Source: Escherichia coli
Lineage (GTDB): Bacteria > Pseudomonadota > Gammaproteobacteria > Enterobacterales > Enterobacteriaceae
DNA length: 64,000 nt
Direction: 5' to 3' (one strand)
Assembly: GCF_048403405.1 (NCBI RefSeq)
Contig: NZ_CP183129.1
The position numbers and the translations under genes are program-made. Below the pieces are notes generated by a model. That model was given only the letters and a program-made list of their open reading frames with translations, did not search any database and was not told the origin of the DNA. Positions 8,045 to 51,925 of the stretch are shown piece after piece. Positions within the stretch are counted from its first letter, which is position 1, and each line of letters starts with the position of its first letter.

Positions 8045-8285
8045 AGCATCCACAATAGAAGAAGGATGCCGCAGGTTTCATCAATATTACGCGATGATGA
8101 GAACCAGATGCGACGTTAGCCGGCAGGTCTTCGGGCTTGGAGGGGTATCTAAGATACTAAGAGATGATGACTTCCCACCGGATGGCAGTGTCCGCATAAC
8201 GCAATCATCGCACCTTTCCTTACCGCTGCGCGTCAGCTCCAGATTTGCACTGGATTCCCTATTAACTCACAGGACCGGCGAGTGG
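8045..8285 (-). promoter_or_regulatory. cobalamin (B12) riboswitch in the btuB 5' leader
   Basis: Reverse complement of 8040-8290 matches the remembered btuB leader (…GCCGGUCCUGUGAGUUAAUAGGGAAUCCAGUGCGAAUCUGGAGCUGACGCGCAGCGGUAAGG…); the plus-strand ORF 8094..8333 here is spurious. Confidence 0.8.
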
Positions 8286-8407
8286 ATGCTACAGGTTGTA
8301 ACAAGTTACTGTCCAGACTTAGCTCACAAATAGGAATACATCAAGATCTGGACATCTGATGAGCAATCCCTACAATCGCCGCGTACTTTAATTTTTCAGG
8401 ATACATC

Positions 8408-9508
8408 ATGACCCCCGAACACCTTCCAACAGAACAGTATGAAGCGCAGTTAGCCGAAAAAGTGGTACGTTTGCAAAGTATGATGGCACCGTTTTCTAAC
8501 CTGGTTCCGGAAGTGTTTCGCTCGCCGGTCAGTCATTACCGGATGCGTGCGGAGTTCCGCATCTGGCACGATGGCGATGACCTGTATCACATCATTTTCG
8601 ATCAACAAACCAAAAGCCGCATCCGCGTGGATAGCTTCCCCGCCGCCAGTGAACTTATCAACCAGTTGATGACGGCGATGATTGCGGGTGTGCGTAATAA
8701 TCCCGTTCTGCGCCACAAGTTGTTCCAGATTGATTACCTCACCACGCTGAGTAATCAGGCGGTGGTTTCCCTGCTGTACCATAAGAAGCTGGATGATGAG
8801 TGGCGTCAGGAAGCGGAAGCCCTGCGCGATGCACTGCGAGCGCAGAATCTGAATGTGCATCTGATTGGTCGGGCAACGAAAACCAAAATCGCGCTGGACC
8901 AGGATTACATCGATGAACGTCTGCCAGTCGCAGGGAAAGAGATGATCTACCGTCAGGTAGAAAACAGCTTTACCCAGCCGAACGCGGCGATGAATATTCA
9001 GATGCTGGAATGGGCGCTGGACGTCACCAAAGGCTCAAAAGGCGATTTACTGGAGCTGTACTGCGGCAACGGTAACTTTTCATTAGCACTGGCGCGCAAT
9101 TTTGATCGGGTATTAGCCACCGAAATCGCTAAGCCGTCGGTCGCTGCCGCGCAATACAACATTGCCGCTAACCATATTGATAACGTACAAATTATTCGTA
9201 TGGCGGCAGAAGAATTTACTCAGGCGATGAATGGCGTACGCGAGTTTAACCGCCTGCAAGGGATCGATTTAAAGAGTTATCAGTGCGAAACCATTTTTGT
9301 CGACCCACCACGCAGCGGTCTGGACGGTGAAACCGAGAAAATGGTGCAGGCGTATCCACGTATTCTGTATATCTCCTGCAATCCGGAAACGTTATGCAAG
9401 AATCTGGAAACATTAAGTCAGACGCACAAGGTCGAACGTCTGGCTCTGTTTGATCAGTTCCCCTACACGCACCATATGGAATGCGGCGTATTACTGACCG
9501 CGAAGTAA
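8408..9508 (+). CDS. trmA: tRNA (uracil54-C5)-methyltransferase
   Basis: 366-aa [22 protein letters not shown]…; SAM-methyltransferase motifs; K-12 synteny. Confidence 0.9.
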
Positions 9509-38949: not shown

Positions 38950-39249
38950 GAAAAGCCGAGGGGCGTCAACCGAAAAATGACCAATGATGGTGAGGAAAAA
39001 TCAGGGAAGTTGAAAAAAACTCATCTTAATTAGAGGCGATAAAAGATTTCTCTATAGCGCAATCCACCTCGCACGTTTTGACTGATATTCTGACAACACA
39101 GCGACACCTGGGCTTATTCGAAAAACAACGTCCTGCCACCGGATGGTGATGCTAAGGCATCTGATTCGGCCTGCGCCCTCGCGTAGGCCGAATACTGGAT
39201 CTGCAAAATCAACTGGTAACAAACAGATGAATCAACTCAATACGTACTT

Positions 39250-40803
39250 TTACTTGATATCTTTCACGCGCATACCGTTGATCTGTTCATCCGTGATGGT
39301 GTTACCCGCTTTGAAGTAATCAACCACGGCGTGATAAACGTAATAACCGCCCGTTGTGTTACGCGCTTTCCCTTCGGTAAAGGCGGTAAAACCATCTCCA
39401 CCATCAGCAAGGAAACTCTGAGTAGCAATGTGGTAAATCGTCGCATCTTCAATGGGTTTGCCATTCAGAGTCAGCGTGATTACCCGCTGACCAACCGGCT
39501 TACTGCTGTCGTACTTCATTTCCAGGCCTTTCGATACCTGTAAAACGCCATTACTTAAACTTGCGCCGTGTTCCATCAAACTGCGTAATTGTTTACCCGT
39601 GAGATCCATCGTCACCAGTTCGTTGGGAAACGGGAAGGTACTGATGACGCCGCCCATCGTAATCGCCCCTGCGGGGATCTCATTGCGAATGCCGCCAGAG
39701 TTGGTTAACGCCAATTGGGTGTTTTTACCCGCCGCTACCAGTAAAGCATCAGCCGCCAGGTTCCCGAGGGAAGCCGATTCACCATAGGCACGTTTTAATT
39801 CAACCGGCGATTTCGCGACCGTTTGTTGCACCACTTCATCAAGCTTTTTATTCCAGCCGTCGATCACCTGTTTTGTTTGCGGATCGGGCTTCCACTCGTC
39901 GGCGTAAATGGTTTTAAGCTCGAAGTTTTTCACCGTAAAATCATGCGGCTTCTCTTTGTAGTCGAGAACCAGTTTGCCCACATCAATCCCGCCGCTGTCA
40001 GTGGAGAGGATGAGCGTATTGCCGACTTTAATCGGTTCCGGCGTACCCACATGCGCATGTCCGGTGATCAAAATATCCAGCCCTTTCACCTGACTTGCCG
40101 TCTGAATATCTTTATCCAGCGCGCGACGCACATCTGTGCCTCCCATACTGGACTGGCGGGCCGGAACACCTTCATGGATCAGGGCGACGGTCAAATCAAC
40201 CTTGCCTTTAAGTTCATCGATATAACGTTGTAGCCATTTAATTTCATCACGCGCTTCAATCCCCACTCGCGTTGCCGCAGATACCGTGTCATTAAAGGCA
40301 AATACACCGTGCAAACCTATAACGCCTATTTTCACGCCGTCTTTTTCGATGATGGTATATGGCTTATCCCAGAATGATTTACTGCTGTTCTGATAAAAAA
40401 CATTGCCCTGCACAATAGGGAATTTTGCCTGACTCAACTGTAATAATGTGTTGTCCCAGCCGTGGTCAAATTCATGGTTGCCTATCGTGACGGCATCAAA
40501 CGGCATAGTATTCATAATATCGATAATAGCCTTACCTTTGGTCAGGCTGCTGATATATGGCCCGGTAAAATAATCACCCGCATCAAAAAACCATGTCGCT
40601 TTATTTTTTGCTTTTTCTTGCTTAACCAGCGTAGTGATATTTGCCCAGCCGCCAATATCCCGTTTACCATCAGCGATCCACGGCACTTTATAAGGCTCGA
40701 CATGCGCATGGAGGTCGTTGGTATAAATGATGGTGACATCTTTGGCGCAAGCCCAAAACGGCAGTGTTAATGCGATACCCGCAGCAAGTATTTTAATTTT
40801 CAT
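39250..40803 (-). CDS. predicted secreted bifunctional metallophosphatase/5'-nucleotidase (UshA/CpdB family); strain-specific accessory gene
   Basis: 517-aa ORF with a signal peptide ([20 protein letters not shown]) and calcineurin-type metallophosphatase motifs (NDLHAH, GDYFTG, GNHEFD, GHAH) followed by a 5'-nucleotidase C-terminal-like domain. K-12, as I recall it, has no gene between metL and metF. Confidence 0.8.
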
Positions 40804-40935
40804 AAACAGTCCCTTTCAGTGAGATAAAGGATTGCTACATTACGTTCTGAAAGAGTTATTTATGTGAGAGTAATCACATCCACAGGGGAGCGTTGCCGGA
40901 CAAAATCAACGACCATGTGAAATCGTTGGTGATAT

Positions 40936-42066
40936 ATGTCGACTCTGTTTACGATTAATGCCTGCAAGTCGTTTGGTTGCCGTAATTTAGGGCAGCCAAC
41001 ATCTAAAGATTATAGCTGGCCCGACTATCGGCTGGGTTATCCGGCATTGCACTGTCGGGCATGTGGCAGTTACCCGCCGTTGTTTGACGAGCAACAATTT
41101 CGTGACTGGTTGTCAGTTCACTTATCTACTTTTGCAACAGAGAAAGGCCATTTTTGCCCGGTATGTTATGGCACAAAGACGATTTGTTATGGCCACAATC
41201 CACAGGGGTCGCAACGCATTCAATGTCGTAACTGCAAAAAAGTCTGGACACCTAAACAATATCAGAAAGAAATAACGCCTCCTGAAATAATCGAAACGGT
41301 TGCTCTTCTGGTGCCATTTCAGGGAGCCAGCAATGGGCAGAAACTGTATGTTTTAATCAGTTTTGATGCTCTTCGCGGTAATATTCTTCATCTTTCTACT
41401 AATTACACGCAGCATCAGGCTGGAGAAAGTCTGCATTATCGATACAGAGGGAATGCAGAACCAGAGTTACACGAGAGTAATATTGTACAACGCGTTGATA
41501 TGCGCGAAGCACAATTTCTACGCCGCAGTCAGTTTGATGAAATTCAGTATGGCAGCGCAGCGCTCAAACGCAATGCTAAAGGTGTTATTCTGCGTCCGGT
41601 TATCACTGCACACGGGCATTTCAGAGTACTGAATATTTTATTCCCTACAGTAAAAACACATGTAATTTCACACGAGTGTTTTTTAAGAGGTGCGATTATT
41701 ACGGCCTGGGCAGAACTGTTTCGCCAACAGCAAGGTGAGATTTGGTTTATTGAAGAGGAAATAGCTGACTATACCGATAATACGCCCTGGCGTTTTCAGG
41801 GAAAAACTTATCACGGCTGGTGGAAAAATCAGTGGCAACTCTGGGTTCAGGGCAAAAATCGTAAAATGGTATGTGCATTAACGGGCGGAAATATCAGCAA
41901 AGCTGAAATGCTCTCTTTAGCAACCAGCAGACATTTTATCGACTGGCTACATAAACAAGCAGTATTTACTCACAGCGCCCCGCTTTCCGCAGGGCGCGTT
42001 ACGCAAATACTGCTTTCTCTGGCTCAGGATTACAACAACTGCGCCAGGCGGTTAATATCCGACTGA
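40936..42066 (+). CDS. hypothetical protein with two N-terminal CxxC zinc ribbons, the second resembling the IS1 InsA zinc ribbon; strain-specific accessory gene
   Basis: 376-aa ORF; motifs CKSFGC…HCRACG and CPVCYGTKTICYGHNPQGSQRIQCRNCKKVWT (compare the InsA copy in this window, CPRCQSVQVYRHGQNPKRHDRFRGRDCHRVFQ). The remaining ~270 aa match nothing I recognise. The 3' end overlaps the metL stop convergently by 37 bp. Confidence 0.55.
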   Translation: MSTLFTINACKSFGCRNLGQPTSKDYSWPDYRLGYPALHCRACGSYPPLFDEQQFRDWLSVHLSTFATEKGHFCPVCYGTKTICYGHNPQGSQRIQCRNCKKVWTPKQYQKEITPPEIIETVALLVPFQGASNGQKLYVLISFDALRGNILHLSTNYTQHQAGESLHYRYRGNAEPELHESNIVQRVDMREAQFLRRSQFDEIQYGSAALKRNAKGVILRPVITAHGHFRVLNILFPTVKTHVISHECFLRGAIITAWAELFRQQQGEIWFIEEEIADYTDNTPWRFQGKTYHGWWKNQWQLWVQGKNRKMVCALTGGNISKAEMLSLATSRHFIDWLHKQAVFTHSAPLSAGRVTQILLSLAQDYNNCARRLISD

Positions 42067-46278: not shown

Positions 46279-46887
46279 ATGAAAATCAGGCTACTGATCC
46301 TCAGCCTGCTGGTTTCTGTGCCTGCATTTGCCTGGCAACCACAAACCGGCGACATCATCTTTCAGATCTCTCGCTCATCGCAAAGTAAAGCGATCCAACT
46401 GGCGACCCATTCCGATTACAGCCACACCGGTATGCTGGTGATGCGTAACAAAAAGCCCTACGTTTTTGAAGCGGTCGGCCCGGTGAAATACACCCCGCTC
46501 AAGCAGTGGATTGCCCATGGTGAAAAGGGCAAATACGTTGTTCGCCGCGTTGAAGGCGGACTGAGTGTTAAACAACAGCAAAAACTGGCGCAAACGGCAA
46601 AACGTTATCTCGGCAAACCGTACGATTTCAGCTTCTCGTGGAGCGACGATCGCCAGTACTGTTCGGAAGTGGTGTGGAAGGTTTACCAGAATGCGCTGGG
46701 AATGCGCGTGGGCGAACAGCAGAAGCTGAAAGAGTTCGACCTGAGCAGCCCACAAGTTCAGGCAAAGCTCAAAGAACGTTACGGCAAGAATATTTCGCTT
46801 GAGGAAACGGTAGTTTCACCACAAGCCGTTTTCGATGCGCCACAACTCACCACGGTCGCCAAAGAGTGGCCGCTGTTTTCGTGGTAA
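46279..46887 (+). CDS. yiiX: YiiX (DUF830, permuted papain-fold hydrolase family)
   Basis: 202-aa ORF with signal peptide; K-12 synteny downstream of metJ. Confidence 0.8.
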   Translation: MKIRLLILSLLVSVPAFAWQPQTGDIIFQISRSSQSKAIQLATHSDYSHTGMLVMRNKKPYVFEAVGPVKYTPLKQWIAHGEKGKYVVRRVEGGLSVKQQQKLAQTAKRYLGKPYDFSFSWSDDRQYCSEVVWKVYQNALGMRVGEQQKLKEFDLSSPQVQAKLKERYGKNISLEETVVSPQAVFDAPQLTTVAKEWPLFSW

Positions 46888-46974
46888 TGGATGATGAAAA
46901 AAATAATTCCCGCCGTAGTCTGTTTGTTGCTTTGTAGTTGCACGACCTTTCCGCAAGCTGTCGCTCCGGTAAAC

Positions 46975-47738
46975 GGTGATGCCTCCAATTAGTTGAATTA
47001 AGGATATAATACTCGCTTTTAAGGTTGTTTCATGGTCACAGTTAACCTTCATTGTCCCCGTTGCCAGTCCGTTCAGGTTTACCGTCACGGGCAGAACCCC
47101 AAAAGACATGATCGATTCCGCGGCCGTGACTGTCACCGGGTATTTCAACTCAGTTACTGTTACGAGCCCCGTAAACCGGGAGTTAAAGACCAAATCGCTG
47201 AAATGGCTTTCAACGGTGCCGGGGTTCGCTATACTGCCCGTACGCTGAAAATCGGCATTAATACAGTCATCCGAACTTTAAAAAACTCTCGCCACGAAGA
47301 ATAACGTCATCCCCGGTCGCTCATGCTGATGTGGCACTCATCTGCGAACGTAGTCAGCAATGGAGCTTTGTCGGCAGTAAAGCGCGACAGCACTGGCTCT
47401 GGTACGTGTACAACACGAAAACTGGTGGTGTTCTGGCCTACACTTTTGGCCCCCGGACTGATGAAACCTGTCGTGAACTGCTGGCGCTGCTTACCCTTTT
47501 ACCATCGGCATGTTGACCACTGACGAATGGGGTAGTTACGCTAGAGAGTTACCAAAGGAGAAGCATCTGACTGGTAAGATTTTTACTCAGCACATTGAGC
47601 GTAACAATCTGACCCTGAGAACCCGAATCAAACGTCTGGCCCGCAGAACCATCTGTTTCTCGCGTTCTGTAGAACTTCATGAAAAAGTCATCGGTGCTTT
47701 TATCGAAAATATATGTTCTACTAATTGGAGTCATCACC
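46975..47738 (+). mobile_element. divergent IS1-family insertion sequence (about 764 bp)
   Basis: Terminal inverted repeats GGTGATGCCTCCAATTAG (46975) and CTAATTGGAGTCATCACC (ending 47738) resemble IS1 ends; the insA-like ORF (47032..47304) has the CPRC…C..C zinc ribbon; insB-like frames 47331..47516 and 47510..47824 are in different frames and one reads through the right IR. Confidence 0.75.
47032..47304 (+). CDS. insA: IS1-family InsA-like protein
   Basis: 90-aa ORF MVTVNLHCPRCQSVQVYRHGQNPKRHDRFRGRDCHRVFQ…NGAGVRYTARTLKIGINTVIRTLKN, clearly related to but divergent from K-12 InsA. Confidence 0.75.
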   Translation: MVTVNLHCPRCQSVQVYRHGQNPKRHDRFRGRDCHRVFQLSYCYEPRKPGVKDQIAEMAFNGAGVRYTARTLKIGINTVIRTLKNSRHEE

Positions 47739-47793
47739 CTTCTGATGAGCTTTCCTTGGATGATTACCAGACTGAATACACAGCCAAAGATTT

Positions 47794-48117
47794 TTACCTC
47801 ATTCTGCTCTTTTTTCTCAAATGACATATATTATATTTTACATCATATTCATAGGTATATGACATTCCCCCGCCCCCCATTATGTCATTGTGGGTTGATG
47901 TTGGGCTTTCATAAAAAAATACATCTTTTTTTGAACTAGCATTAATTATATTTACTTTATATATTAAAATATTTTCTCCATCTGGAAATATTTTAGCCAC
48001 ACAATATAAAGCAGCTAAATCCGAATTACTTAAAAATATATTGTCATCACTCATAACTCCAGCCATTAAATGACTGGAGACTAAAGCAAGGAAATAACAA
48101 CATTGTATTGCCTTCAT
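47794..48117 (-). CDS. putative immunity protein for the orphan Rhs C-terminal toxin
   Basis: Small AT-rich ORF starting one nucleotide after the orphan toxin stop (TAA-A-ATG, with GGGAG upstream); predicted start MKAIQCCYFLALVSSHLMAG is signal-peptide-like. Assigned by position only. Confidence 0.5.
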   Translation of the reverse strand: MKAIQCCYFLALVSSHLMAGVMSDDNIFLSNSDLAALYCVAKIFPDGENILIYKVNIINASSKKDVFFYESPTSTHNDIMGGGGMSYTYEYDVKYNICHLRKKSRMR

Positions 48118-48118
48118 T

Positions 48119-49378
48119 TTAATTACTCCCTTGCCTGATAATTGCAACTCCATTCCCTTTAGCTTTGGGATTATATTTTAGATAGGTGTTATTTGGTGTT
48201 CCCAAGTAACTACTGTATTCTTTTTTTCCCATTCCATTCATATAAGAATTCGTTAAATCTTTGCTTGAAAAATTTAGACTATCATAAACATCATTTTCTT
48301 TTGTTACTTTATTTCCTTTATCGTCAGAGTAAAAACCGTGAGTGTGATAATCACCTACTCTCTCTGAACCTTCAGGGCATTTTATATTTCGCAAGTCTAC
48401 ACTATCATTATCATTTGAACTTATCGGATTCATAGGGAAATATTCACCTTGCTTCTTACATATTAGTCCACCATATTCTTTATTCTTGTTAATTGATTCT
48501 CCATTACACATTGCCAATGCAAATATTCCAATATCATCTATATTTTTTGATTTAAATTCATATAATCCTAATGGATCCATGCCATTCACCGGGCTCAGCG
48601 GATATGTATACAGGTTCCATCCCCCCTTCAGCCCAATCGGATCCTGAGTGATATACCGCCCCTGCAGCGGGTCATAATAGCGGTGGCGGTTGTAATACAG
48701 GCCGGACTCCTCATCATACTGCTGACCCGGCAGGCGGATGAGCTGCTGCAGCTGATGCGGGTTCTCTTCATTCAGCTGGTTACCCCATTCATCGTATTCT
48801 GCGCACCATTCTGTTGCCCCTTCCGTGCTGACAAGCGCCAGCGGCAGGCCGCGATGGTCGCAGTGGTACAGGTGGATTTTTCGCGCCGGCGTGTACACCG
48901 GGTCCATCTGGTTTTGTATCTGCTCCACCGTCAGGCCGCACGATGCCAGCCAGCGGCGGCTTTCCTCGCTCACCCGGTCAGCCAGGATTTCACTTTCCAG
49001 CCGGTCGAGCATCTGCACCAGCACCGGCGGGAACACCACACTGCCACCGTCTTCACCGCCGGACTGCTGAAGCGCATCCGCCAGGCTGCGGCGCTGCGTT
49101 TTCGCCAGCTCACCGGTGGCAGTTTCAACTCTGATGAGTGGCGTGAAGCTCCCCGGCTGATAAACCGTCTGGATGCGGGTTCTGTCGTTCTGTATTGTGG
49201 TCAGCCGGTCGCCGTCCCAGCCGTACCAGGTCACTTCCGGTTTCCATGACAGCGACATCCAGCCCGTCAGGTCCCGTTCACGCCGCCATACCCGTTTTGC
49301 CACCCTGCGGCCCAGCAGGTCGTAAAGATAGCGACTTTCGACCAGCGGCTCTGCATATTGTGTCCGCGTGTAGTGCAC
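48119..49378 (-). CDS. orphan Rhs C-terminal module (core-end fragment plus alternative toxin tip)
   Basis: 419-aa ORF that begins inside rhs core sequence (…[30 protein letters not shown]…), passes the DPLGL demarcation and ends in an AT-rich unique tip (…[16 protein letters not shown]…). The track start is a GTG; core homology continues upstream to about 49620 with no ribosome-binding context. Confidence 0.85.
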
Positions 49379-49612
49379 CAGCCGGTGCCGGCTGTCGTAA
49401 TGGTACCGGTGAGTCCGCTCATCATCCGTGCGGATAACCCCTTCCGGGATGAGGTCGGTTTTCTCCGTCAGCCTGCCGTGACGGTCATACCGGTAAAGAT
49501 AGTGCGCGTCACGGGCGATACGGTTATCCGGCCATGCGCTGAGGGGGCTGTCCGGGTGCAGCTCCGGGTCGGGCAGGCGGTTGCCTGCCGGGTCCGTGGC
49601 ATACGGGATATC
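48612..49612. repeat. roughly 1 kb rhs core-end direct repeat (orphan copy)
   Basis: Near-identical to 52940..53940 (offset 4328 bp; only scattered mismatches by eye). Confidence 0.9.
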
Positions 49613-49654
49613 AATGCCCAGGTTACATATAATAATAAGAGCAATTAACTTAAT

Positions 49655-49981
49655 TTATTTGTTTATAATGCGCTTACTTAATACAAACCATTGAATATAC
49701 CCTCCTGACAGAAAATAAAGCCATATTATTATCGCCATAATATACTTACTATCAATCCTTACGCCAATAATGTCTGAAACAGTCCCTATAAATATTAGAG
49801 CAATAAAGAATACTATGCCTGTTGGAAAACAGATTACCATCATTCCATAAGACATGAGACTAATTAACTCGCTCACATCACGAGTGGAGTCTAATAGTGA
49901 AAGTCTATGCATGGAAAAGAATAGTATTAAAAGCGATAAAGCCAGCCATATAGCTCTGAATAAAAAAATAATATATTTCAT
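49655..49981 (-). CDS. small hypothetical membrane protein with three predicted TM helices
   Basis: 108-aa AT-rich ORF MKYIIFLFRAIWLALSLLILFF… inside the rhs island; function unknown. Confidence 0.45.
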   Translation of the reverse strand: MKYIIFLFRAIWLALSLLILFFSMHRLSLLDSTRDVSELISLMSYGMMVICFPTGIVFFIALIFIGTVSDIIGVRIDSKYIMAIIIWLYFLSGGYIQWFVLSKRIINK

Positions 49982-50085
49982 TACATCACTCCGGTGAATA
50001 CAAATCTAATAAAGCGTCCAATGTTATTTCCGGAGCACTTCATCTTACATGTTTCTAAAGAATCATTAGACCAGTCAGGGCAAGA

Positions 50086-51221
50086 TTACGAAAGCCCGCT
50101 CCCCGCAAGGACTGACGCGAGATAGTTTCTGTCCATGGCTGCTTTTCGCATCTTACGTCTTAACCCTGCCTTGAATACCTTATCATTCGTCAAAATATTA
50201 ATAGCAATGTGCCGTATCCCTGAAAATAATTCTGCTGCGTTTCCTCTTCTTATTTTGCAGTCGTCTTCATTCATTACCACGTCCAGACGCCAGTGCAGCT
50301 TATTCTCCACGTGCCAGTGGTTTCGGATTGCTGTGGCGAACTTCTCAGCGGTTAAATCAGCAGAGCTGATATAATATCTGACCGTCATTTCTGGCTCTTT
50401 CTTTTGTTCTGCTATTATTGACCGAAAGGAGACTGCCACGTATAATTTTTCAGTCCTTTCCATTCAAATGTAAAATCAATAAGTTCATCAGGGACATCGC
50501 AAACAATATGAAGACGGATTTCTTCTCTGCCGTGACTCTTTTCACTAATTGCGTAACTGTCATGCTCTGGATTAATTAATTCTTTCAGCGGAAATGTTTC
50601 CTCAAAGGCTTTATTCAGCCGCCCCTGGTTTCCTTTTACAGCGAATAAGTAATCACCACCCTGTTTTTGTATCTTCTCTGCAATATCTTTCTGGCAACCC
50701 ATCGCATCAGTTGTGATGATTTTCTCTTTAATATACAAAATGTTAAGAAGTTCAGGGATAGCTGTGATCTCATTAGATTTCTCATCCGTCCTGATCTGCC
50801 CCAGGACCAGAATGTGCATTGTTGAGAACGCACTAATGACATGAATCGCTCCCCTGCGGCGACTCTTGTCATAAGAATGCCGGAGTGTTTTTCCATCAAT
50901 TGCGATGACGTCTTTATCATCTGAAGTATGGCAATCTCGCATCCAGTTAATAAAGCACTCGTGAAATTTTGCAGGACTGATACAGGATACAACTCTGGCG
51001 ATGGTATCGTGAACAGGAATACCATTTTCAAAATCACCGTATTGTTTTAAAAAATCGAGATGTGTTTCCCCAAAATCCTCTATATCTTCCCAACCTTCTG
51101 CACCCGAAATAACGGCACAAATAGTCAACAGTAGAATATCCGATAATTTATGTTCCACTTTCCAGGCTTGTCTGTAATCGGGGATAATAGAAATATGCTC
51201 CATCAATTTTTTAAGTTCCAT
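50086..51221 (-). pseudogene. H-repeat-associated (ISAs1-family) transposase, split by a frameshift
   Basis: ORFs 50415..51221 (268 aa, [51 protein letters not shown]…) and 50086..50463 (125 aa, …[32 protein letters not shown]…) overlap in different frames and together resemble the roughly 378-aa K-12 H-rpt proteins. Confidence 0.7.
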
Positions 51222-51755
51222 TTTGTTCTCCTTAATTATGTAAGGAGTATTTGATCATGTATAAGCAATAAAAAACAGCTTTAGGTAATGAGGAATATCT
51301 CAATTTTCAAACATAAAATGCGAATTATTTAGTACAAAAAAGCAGCGTTACGTGATCTTTCCCTGGCATGTCATTAGATGAACCAGTTATACAACCCTCG
51401 GAACAGAATCGAGGTCCTAAAGACGGACCAAAAGCGTTTAAACAACTATGTATTGAAAATCCATTACGATTATAAGTTCCTGTATTAACTGACGGTACTA
51501 ATCGTATGCCGTCAGGTTTTCTATTGCTTGCTCCCGGGTCATTAACATTCCAACTCCATAGGCCTTGAGGTATTGGCCCTCTATTTATAAATGTGTACAA
51601 CGGGGATTATTTTTACATTGCATATTATTACCAGAAGCGACTGGAATACTAAGCACATCATAAAAATTATCATCACCTGGTATATCTGAAACACACGAAA
51701 GCATACCTAAAGTTATGCTGTATAAACAGGTGGCTAATCCCAAGGGGATCGATTC

Positions 51756-51925
51756 CAGAAATCGGGTTCAACGGATACTGATAAAAATTCCACCTACCTT
51801 CCAGCCCAATCGGAGCCTGAGTGTTATACCGCCCCTGCTGCGGTTAATGTTACCGATAATAGTTATAGTACAGCCCTGATTCATCATCATACTACTGCTG
51901 CGGCAGTCTGATGAATTATTGCTTT
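51756..51925. repeat. degenerate third copy of the rhs core-end segment
   Basis: CAACGGATACTGATAAAAATTCCACCTACCTTCCAGCCCAATCGGAGCCTGAGTGTTATACCGCCCCTG… aligns with the main core end at 52925-53090 with many substitutions and stops. Confidence 0.7.

Follow-up and report, generated by a model that had tools for sequence, protein, structure and literature searches.

The window analysed here, a stretch of 64,000 nucleotides of Escherichia coli DNA, carries metJ and yiiX upstream of an insertion sequence (IS) of the IS1 family, IS1H, beyond which an Rhs element extends towards rpmE. The yiiX-rpmE interval of E. coli exists as three alleles. In the K-12 type, 13 bp lie between the yiiX stop codon and the rpmE terminator. 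The BL21 type has an intact 624-bp gene encoding a TIGR02117-family lipoprotein (positions 8120–8743 of the BL21 segment L002), which is found in 288 of the 5426 complete E. coli genomes (~5%). In the window type, the first ~27 codons of this lipoprotein gene (from 46891 or 46894 to 46974) are followed by IS1H and then by a 9-kb Rhs element on the minus strand. The features of the locus are as follows, with the basis of each assignment in parentheses.

46891..46974, plus strand: 5' remnant of the TIGR02117-family lipoprotein gene, ~27 codons with signal peptide and lipobox (BL21 homology ends exactly at 46974).
46975..47738, plus strand: IS1H element, 764 bp, inactivated copy (100% identity to RefSeq-labelled IS1H copies).
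46975..46997, plus strand: left terminal inverted repeat (IRL), GGTGATGCCTCCAATTAGTTGAA (21/23 complementary to the right repeat; alignable to the termini of IS1A, IS1N and the intact relatives).
47032..47304, plus strand: insA ORF, 90 aa, open, with the third zinc-finger Cys changed to Gly (Pfam and alignment).
47280..47286, plus strand: A6C programmed −1 ribosomal frameshift motif, AAAAAAC (frame switch in homology to IS1A InsAB').
47352..47357, plus strand: AGT CAG (Ser-Gln) replacing GAT GAG (Asp-Glu) of the DEQW block (alignment).
47494..47496, plus strand: run of three C against four in the intact relatives, a 1-bp deletion that leaves the DDE domain partly in frame +3 and partly in frame +2 (alignment to the 766-bp relatives).
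47706..47709, plus strand: run of four A against five in the relatives, a 1-bp deletion by which the in-frame TAA is lost (alignment to the relatives).
47716..47738, plus strand: right terminal inverted repeat (IRR) (the insB TAA stop lies inside IRR in the intact relatives).
47739..56745, minus strand: Rhs element of the yiiX-rpmE locus, comprising dsORF-f3 (47794–48117), an orphan Rhs C-terminal fragment, a ybfB-like gene, a frameshifted ISAs1/H-rpt, a sel1-repeat gene and the 1409-aa Rhs core ORF (52404–56633) (identical locus as annotated in strain MS 69-1, and ORFs).

Compared with the BL21-type and K-12-type alleles, IS1H stands at the left margin of a 9.8-kb Rhs island (46975–56745) that replaces BL21 positions 8201–8750, in agreement with the first-pass annotation, which had placed an IS1-family element at an island edge. 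On the yiiX 3' side, BL21 homology continues up to 46974, and both island-free alleles become alignable again at the rpmE terminator, from 56746 (BL21) and 56739 (K-12). The lipoprotein gene, intact in just the ~5% of genomes given above, is truncated by IS1H. What is left of it opens a 33-aa ORF (46891–46992) with a signal peptide and lipobox (LLLCSC), which ends at a TAG within the left repeat of the IS.

The Rhs element belongs to a catalogued locus. Jackson et al. (2009) placed an Rhs locus between yiiX and priA (their locus 11; PMC2935791), and Archer et al. (2011) reported one IS1H in E. coli W, and an Rhs element at b3936-b3937 (their locus 10; PMC3032704). As far as the two papers describe these loci, the window Rhs has the same position, core ORF, orphan tips with dsORF-f3, and H-rpt/ISAs1, whereas the IS1H boundary and the truncated lipoprotein gene seen in the window are absent from their descriptions of the Rhs locus. 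A further report, on RhsF/RhsFI (PMC7618764), deals with another locus (ECs0604, S-loop 44) and has no bearing on the yiiX-rpmE Rhs. IS1H, being named, already flagged as a pseudogene in RefSeq and situated in a catalogued Rhs locus, is thus already known; the present analysis adds precisely which lesions it carries, that it truncates a lipoprotein gene, and how frequent it is in the population.

The element starts at 46975 with GGTGATGCC and ends at 47738 with GTCATCACC, exactly the span given in the first-pass annotation and a length of 764 bp; its first bases are GGTGATGCCTCC and its last bases GGAGTCATCACC. The 23-bp inverted repeats match at 21 of 23 positions, which, together with the length, fits the IS1 family (repeats of ~23 bp starting GGTGATG or GGTAATG, and a total of ~768 bp). 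IS1H occurs once in the window. When the 5426 complete E. coli genomes were searched by megablast, a 100% identical 764-bp copy was found in 6 genomes, and at least 80% of the element was present in 2400. RefSeq labels the identical copies, which occupy the same yiiX-Rhs position, as "IS1-like element IS1H family transposase", frameshifted, and over the 764 bp nothing distinguishes the window copy from them. It is this RefSeq/PGAP label, the ISfinder isoform name as NCBI PGAP uses it, that we adopt here, and the window copy appears to represent the locus type of IS1H itself.

IS1-like inverted repeats and InsA had been described as recognisable but clearly diverged from K-12 IS1, and both points hold. 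IS1A of E. coli K-12, the canonical IS1 (768 bp), shares with the window copy the family organisation, the Pfam domains, the terminal GGTGATGC and the A6C motif, but the two differ strongly in sequence, with 52% nucleotide identity to the IS1A of MG1655 and 36–46% amino-acid identity per segment. This distance is due to a different isoform lineage (IS1H/IS1N) and not to decay: judged by its sequence, the element is a separate isoform, IS1H, rather than a decayed K-12 IS1. When plasmids were searched by tblastn with the window protein, repaired as described below, the closest intact relatives were 766-bp elements from Salmonella enterica (plasmid pSA20083530.1; 93% amino-acid identity) and Escherichia marmotae (plasmid pEM148; 92%). 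IS1N, which has many copies in Shigella dysenteriae, Klebsiella and others, follows at ~86% (85.5–86%). These relatives have inverted repeats, insA, A6C and insB' in common with the window copy. In the plasmid relatives and the IS1N copies alike, the transposase frame is interrupted solely by the programmed frameshift, so that InsAB' is uninterrupted and ends at a TAA inside IRR, whereas the window copy is two bases short. The E. marmotae relative also has an 8-bp target duplication, which the window copy lacks.

The insA ORF of IS1H is open, and its product has the two-part structure of InsA, with an N-terminal zinc ribbon (Pfam Zn_ribbon_InsA, E 3.7e-19) and a C-terminal helix-turn-helix (HTH_Tnp_IS1, E 1.4e-28), by matches to PF03811 (E 3.7e-19) and PF12759 (E 1.4e-28), both on 47032–47304. 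One zinc-ligand Cys is mutated. This is the third Cys of the zinc finger, which has become Gly (C31G; GGC at 47122–47124), so that the window reads RFRGRDC where IS1N and both intact plasmid relatives read RFRCRDC and IS1A has LCSHC in the same columns. The slippery site is preserved: the A6C motif lies in the context TTAAAAAAC, with its run of A at 47280–47285, and a tblastn comparison with IS1A InsAB' switches there from the InsA frame, +1, to frame +3, the canonical −1 change.

Downstream of insA, in the −1 frame, lies an IS1-type DDE domain, but it is broken. DDE_Tnp_IS1 (PF03400) matches two separate ORF pieces, with E values of 8.9e-26 and 6.8e-32, which cover positions 1–55 and 61–127 of the 131-position profile. 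With the InsA domains, these matches show that the likeness to IS1 is not accidental. The tblastn comparison with IS1A InsAB' shows a second frame switch, from +3 to +2, at element position ~521, where there is no programmed signal. The cause is the missing base in the C run at 47494–47496, since adding one C to this run restores LLALLTPFTIGMLTTDEW. The second deletion, in the A run near the right end, accounts for the insB-like frame that had been reported to run through the right inverted repeat: because the loss of a single base from the run of five A removes the TAA inside the repeat, the ORF (47510–47824; 104 aa) crosses the repeat and is read through to 47824. It should not be called a gene in annotation. 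With both deletions repaired, a 231-aa protein is obtained whose C-terminus, IEKYMFY followed by the stop codon, is as in the intact relatives.

The repaired protein would still differ from other IS1 transposases at conserved positions, invariance being judged across four of them, namely IS1A, IS1N and the two intact plasmid copies. The DEQW block, found unchanged in IS1A, IS1N and both plasmid copies, is SQQW in the window, and TQRIE to TQHIE and WYAY to WYVY are further changes at positions invariant in all four. The Asp lost from DEQW is putatively the first catalytic Asp of the DDE triad, a role that we presume from its conservation and from the general layout of DDE transposases. End binding by InsA and InsAB' needs the zinc finger and the helix-turn-helix, and catalysis by InsAB' needs the DDE triad (PMC12903888). 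An autonomous IS1 has an unbroken InsAB' in which the zinc-finger and DDE residues are conserved, while in the window InsAB' is broken by two non-programmed 1-bp deletions and carries substitutions at invariant residues. On the evidence of these reading frames, IS1H retains its terminal repeats and A6C but is no longer able to make transposase.

It could be argued that this is an active or recent IS1 variant, with features that look odd and are normal for the isoform, in view of its A6C motif, its insA ORF and its good terminal repeats. The intact relatives make this exceedingly improbable: at 766 bp, they have the uninterrupted InsAB' and the TAA in the right repeat, and it is the window copy that is missing two bases and the conserved residues. 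RefSeq flags the identical copies as a frameshifted pseudogene, and the same lesions and junctions are found in other strains at this locus, as shown next.

The comparison covered six copies at this locus, from the window, O157:H7 strain 7636, NDM1, SMN013SH2, FDAARGOS_497 and an E. coli-like MAG contig. All are 764 bp long, and both deletions, the Cys-to-Gly change and SQQW are present in 6/6. The right junction, from the IS to dsORF-f3, is identical in 2162 of the 5426 complete E. coli genomes (~40%), and all sampled genomes of the truncated class share one left breakpoint, exact to the base, within the lipoprotein gene. Divergence between lineages is 0.1–1.6% in the IS and 0.2–1.3% in the right flank. 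Domestication of InsA was considered and rejected: variable sites are no less dense in insA (10/273) than in the remaining element with its dead insB (15/491), and pN/pS, at ~0.44, does not lie significantly below 1 (p = 0.25). The common lesions, the identical junctions and insA substitutions that are not detectably non-neutral show that IS1H was dead before the carrier E. coli lineages diverged; from then on it has been passed down as a passive sequence that drifts along with the Rhs island. The earlier suggestion of an old, degenerate boundary marker in place of a recent active insertion is therefore upheld, both by the broken InsAB' without direct repeats and by the lesions common to all six copies, O157:H7 included. 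IS1H stably marks the yiiX-rpmE Rhs allele across lineages, in ~40% of complete E. coli genomes.

A simple IS1 insertion leaves a direct duplication of 8–9 bp, and none is found here. The 9-bp flanks, CCGGTAAAC (46966–46974) on the left and CTTCTGATG (47739–47747) on the right, match at neither 8 nor 9 bp, just as the first-pass annotation had it. Duplication is a property of the insertion event and not of the element. For example, the E. marmotae relative is surrounded by an 8-bp duplication, TGGTAAGT, the mark of a simple IS1-family insertion, and an IS1F nested inside IS1H in strain L3452210II has one of the same length, CGCAGAAC. IS1H has no target duplication because its flanks are unrelated DNA that were never neighbours, the start of a lipoprotein gene on one side and the distal end of an Rhs element on the other. 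The locus is a clean example of an IS that may lack a target duplication without the IS call being wrong.

Searches for an earlier state of the locus gave results consistent with this. An empty site, represented by the left 200 bp joined to the right 200 bp, was contiguous in 0 of the 5426 complete E. coli genomes, which leaves no pre-insertion site by which a duplication could be defined. The right flank alone without the IS was seen in 0 of 60 E. coli rows sampled down the ranking of the junction query, as each of these either crossed the junction or matched the IS end alone; an IS-free right flank, if it exists, is rare. An exact scan of 100,044 species-representative genomes with a 24-nt word from the right flank, a method that misses diverged homologues, found no ancestral state elsewhere. 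No genome in a pre-deletion state, with Rhs and an intact TIGR02117 gene or with the right flank free of the IS, was found among the genomes searched.

The sole match in the 24-nt scan has the same arrangement as the window. It is a 2240-bp contig, SFGN01000258.1, from a MAG labelled 'Lachnospiraceae bacterium', which is 98% identical to and collinear with window positions 46474–48713 (yiiX, IS1H and dsORF-f3). The contig is almost certainly a contaminant from E. coli that was binned with a Firmicutes MAG.

The best explanation, to which we give a probability of about 80%, is that IS1H is a fixed, non-autonomous element whose target duplication was lost through an IS1-type adjacent deletion. 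Under this scheme, an Rhs element would first have come to lie between the TIGR02117-family lipoprotein gene and rpmE, and IS1H would then have inserted nearby. An adjacent deletion of the IS1 type, that is, intramolecular transposition from one end of the IS, would have cut away ~543 bp from the 3' side of the lipoprotein gene, along with any DNA in between, leaving one IS copy flush against the new junction. The missing duplication most likely reflects such an IS-associated deletion, although the step itself and the order of events are inferred. Deletions that directly abut a terminus of IS1H do arise here: five genomes, described below, have one at its opposite end.

The main alternative is homologous recombination between two directly repeated copies of IS1H, the first situated in the TIGR02117 gene and the second downstream of dsORF-f3. 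The intervening DNA would be lost, and a single hybrid copy would keep a flank from each. It predicts the same end state, a single IS with unrelated flanks and no duplication, and the genomes identical to the window do hold only one IS1H. We nevertheless consider it unlikely, given that IS1H, of which E. coli chromosomes otherwise have essentially one copy, would have to have inserted twice independently, and that no genome with two flanking copies was seen. Nor can it explain the flush deletion at the other end of IS1H in the five genomes, where no partner copy is visible.

Another idea is that IS1H was the vehicle that brought in the Rhs island, by replicon fusion or one-ended transposition, and now marks the integration junction. 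The position of the IS exactly at the island edge, and the 0/60 count for an IS-free right flank given above, would fit such a role. The far end of the island argues otherwise, as no second IS1H or IS1 repeat remnant was found at 56700–56746, and the far junction is the same rpmE-terminator boundary as in the two island-free alleles. Rhs elements also lie at other E. coli loci without such an IS, and the spread of Rhs, in the part of Jackson et al. that deals with it, is described without one (PMC2935791). We regard this explanation as very improbable and retain the adjacent deletion as the preferred reading.

The IS1H edge has been rearranged further in several strains. The five genomes with the flush deletion form a cattle-associated group, the SMN013SH2 type (L013 2185–2344), in which 871 bp are missing next to the right terminus of IS1H. 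Window position 47738 is there joined to 48610; dsORF-f3 and the orphan Rhs toxin tip are gone, while the left junction is kept. The deletion ends at the boundary between Rhs core and tip (DPxGL...GGWNLY). Since the inactivating lesions are shared, the 871-bp deletion postdates inactivation, which suggests either that a transposase acted in trans or that the endpoint is a coincidence. By extension, the ends of the dead IS1H might be used in trans by other IS1-family transposases, with adjacent deletions pruning the array of orphan Rhs toxin and immunity genes; this we put forward tentatively, as a possibility on the doubtful side.

Three other strains show events of related kinds. In MSB1_9D (L017 1225–1330), an intact IS1A has corA on one side and on the other abuts rhsB, at the point that corresponds to the SMN013SH2 junction. 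This hints at a target or deletion hot spot for IS1 inside Rhs cores, at the boundary of core and tip. In L3452210II (L014 2175–2945), the IS1F mentioned above is nested in IS1H at a point corresponding to about window position 47649; other IS1 elements are able to insert into the IS1H relic. In EC42405 (L016 1209–2500), this edge has been rearranged in another way: a frameshifted ISAs1 (H-rpt), homologous to window positions 50076–51365, has taken the place of the lipoprotein remnant and of ~530 bp at the left of IS1H.

Other parts of the window also differ from reference strains. Just upstream of the island, the 3' half of yiiX (46686–46866) has 21 mismatches to O157:H7 in ~180 bp (~12%), against ~1% in the adjacent IS and Rhs flank, and looks like a recombination patch that ends just before the yiiX stop codon. 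Between metF and metL, the window has a 3-kb insertion (39019–42028) relative to BL21. It encodes a 517-aa protein on the minus strand that resembles a 5'-nucleotidase/metallophosphoesterase lipoprotein, and positions 40936–42066 would encode a 376-aa Cys-rich protein with several CxxC pairs.
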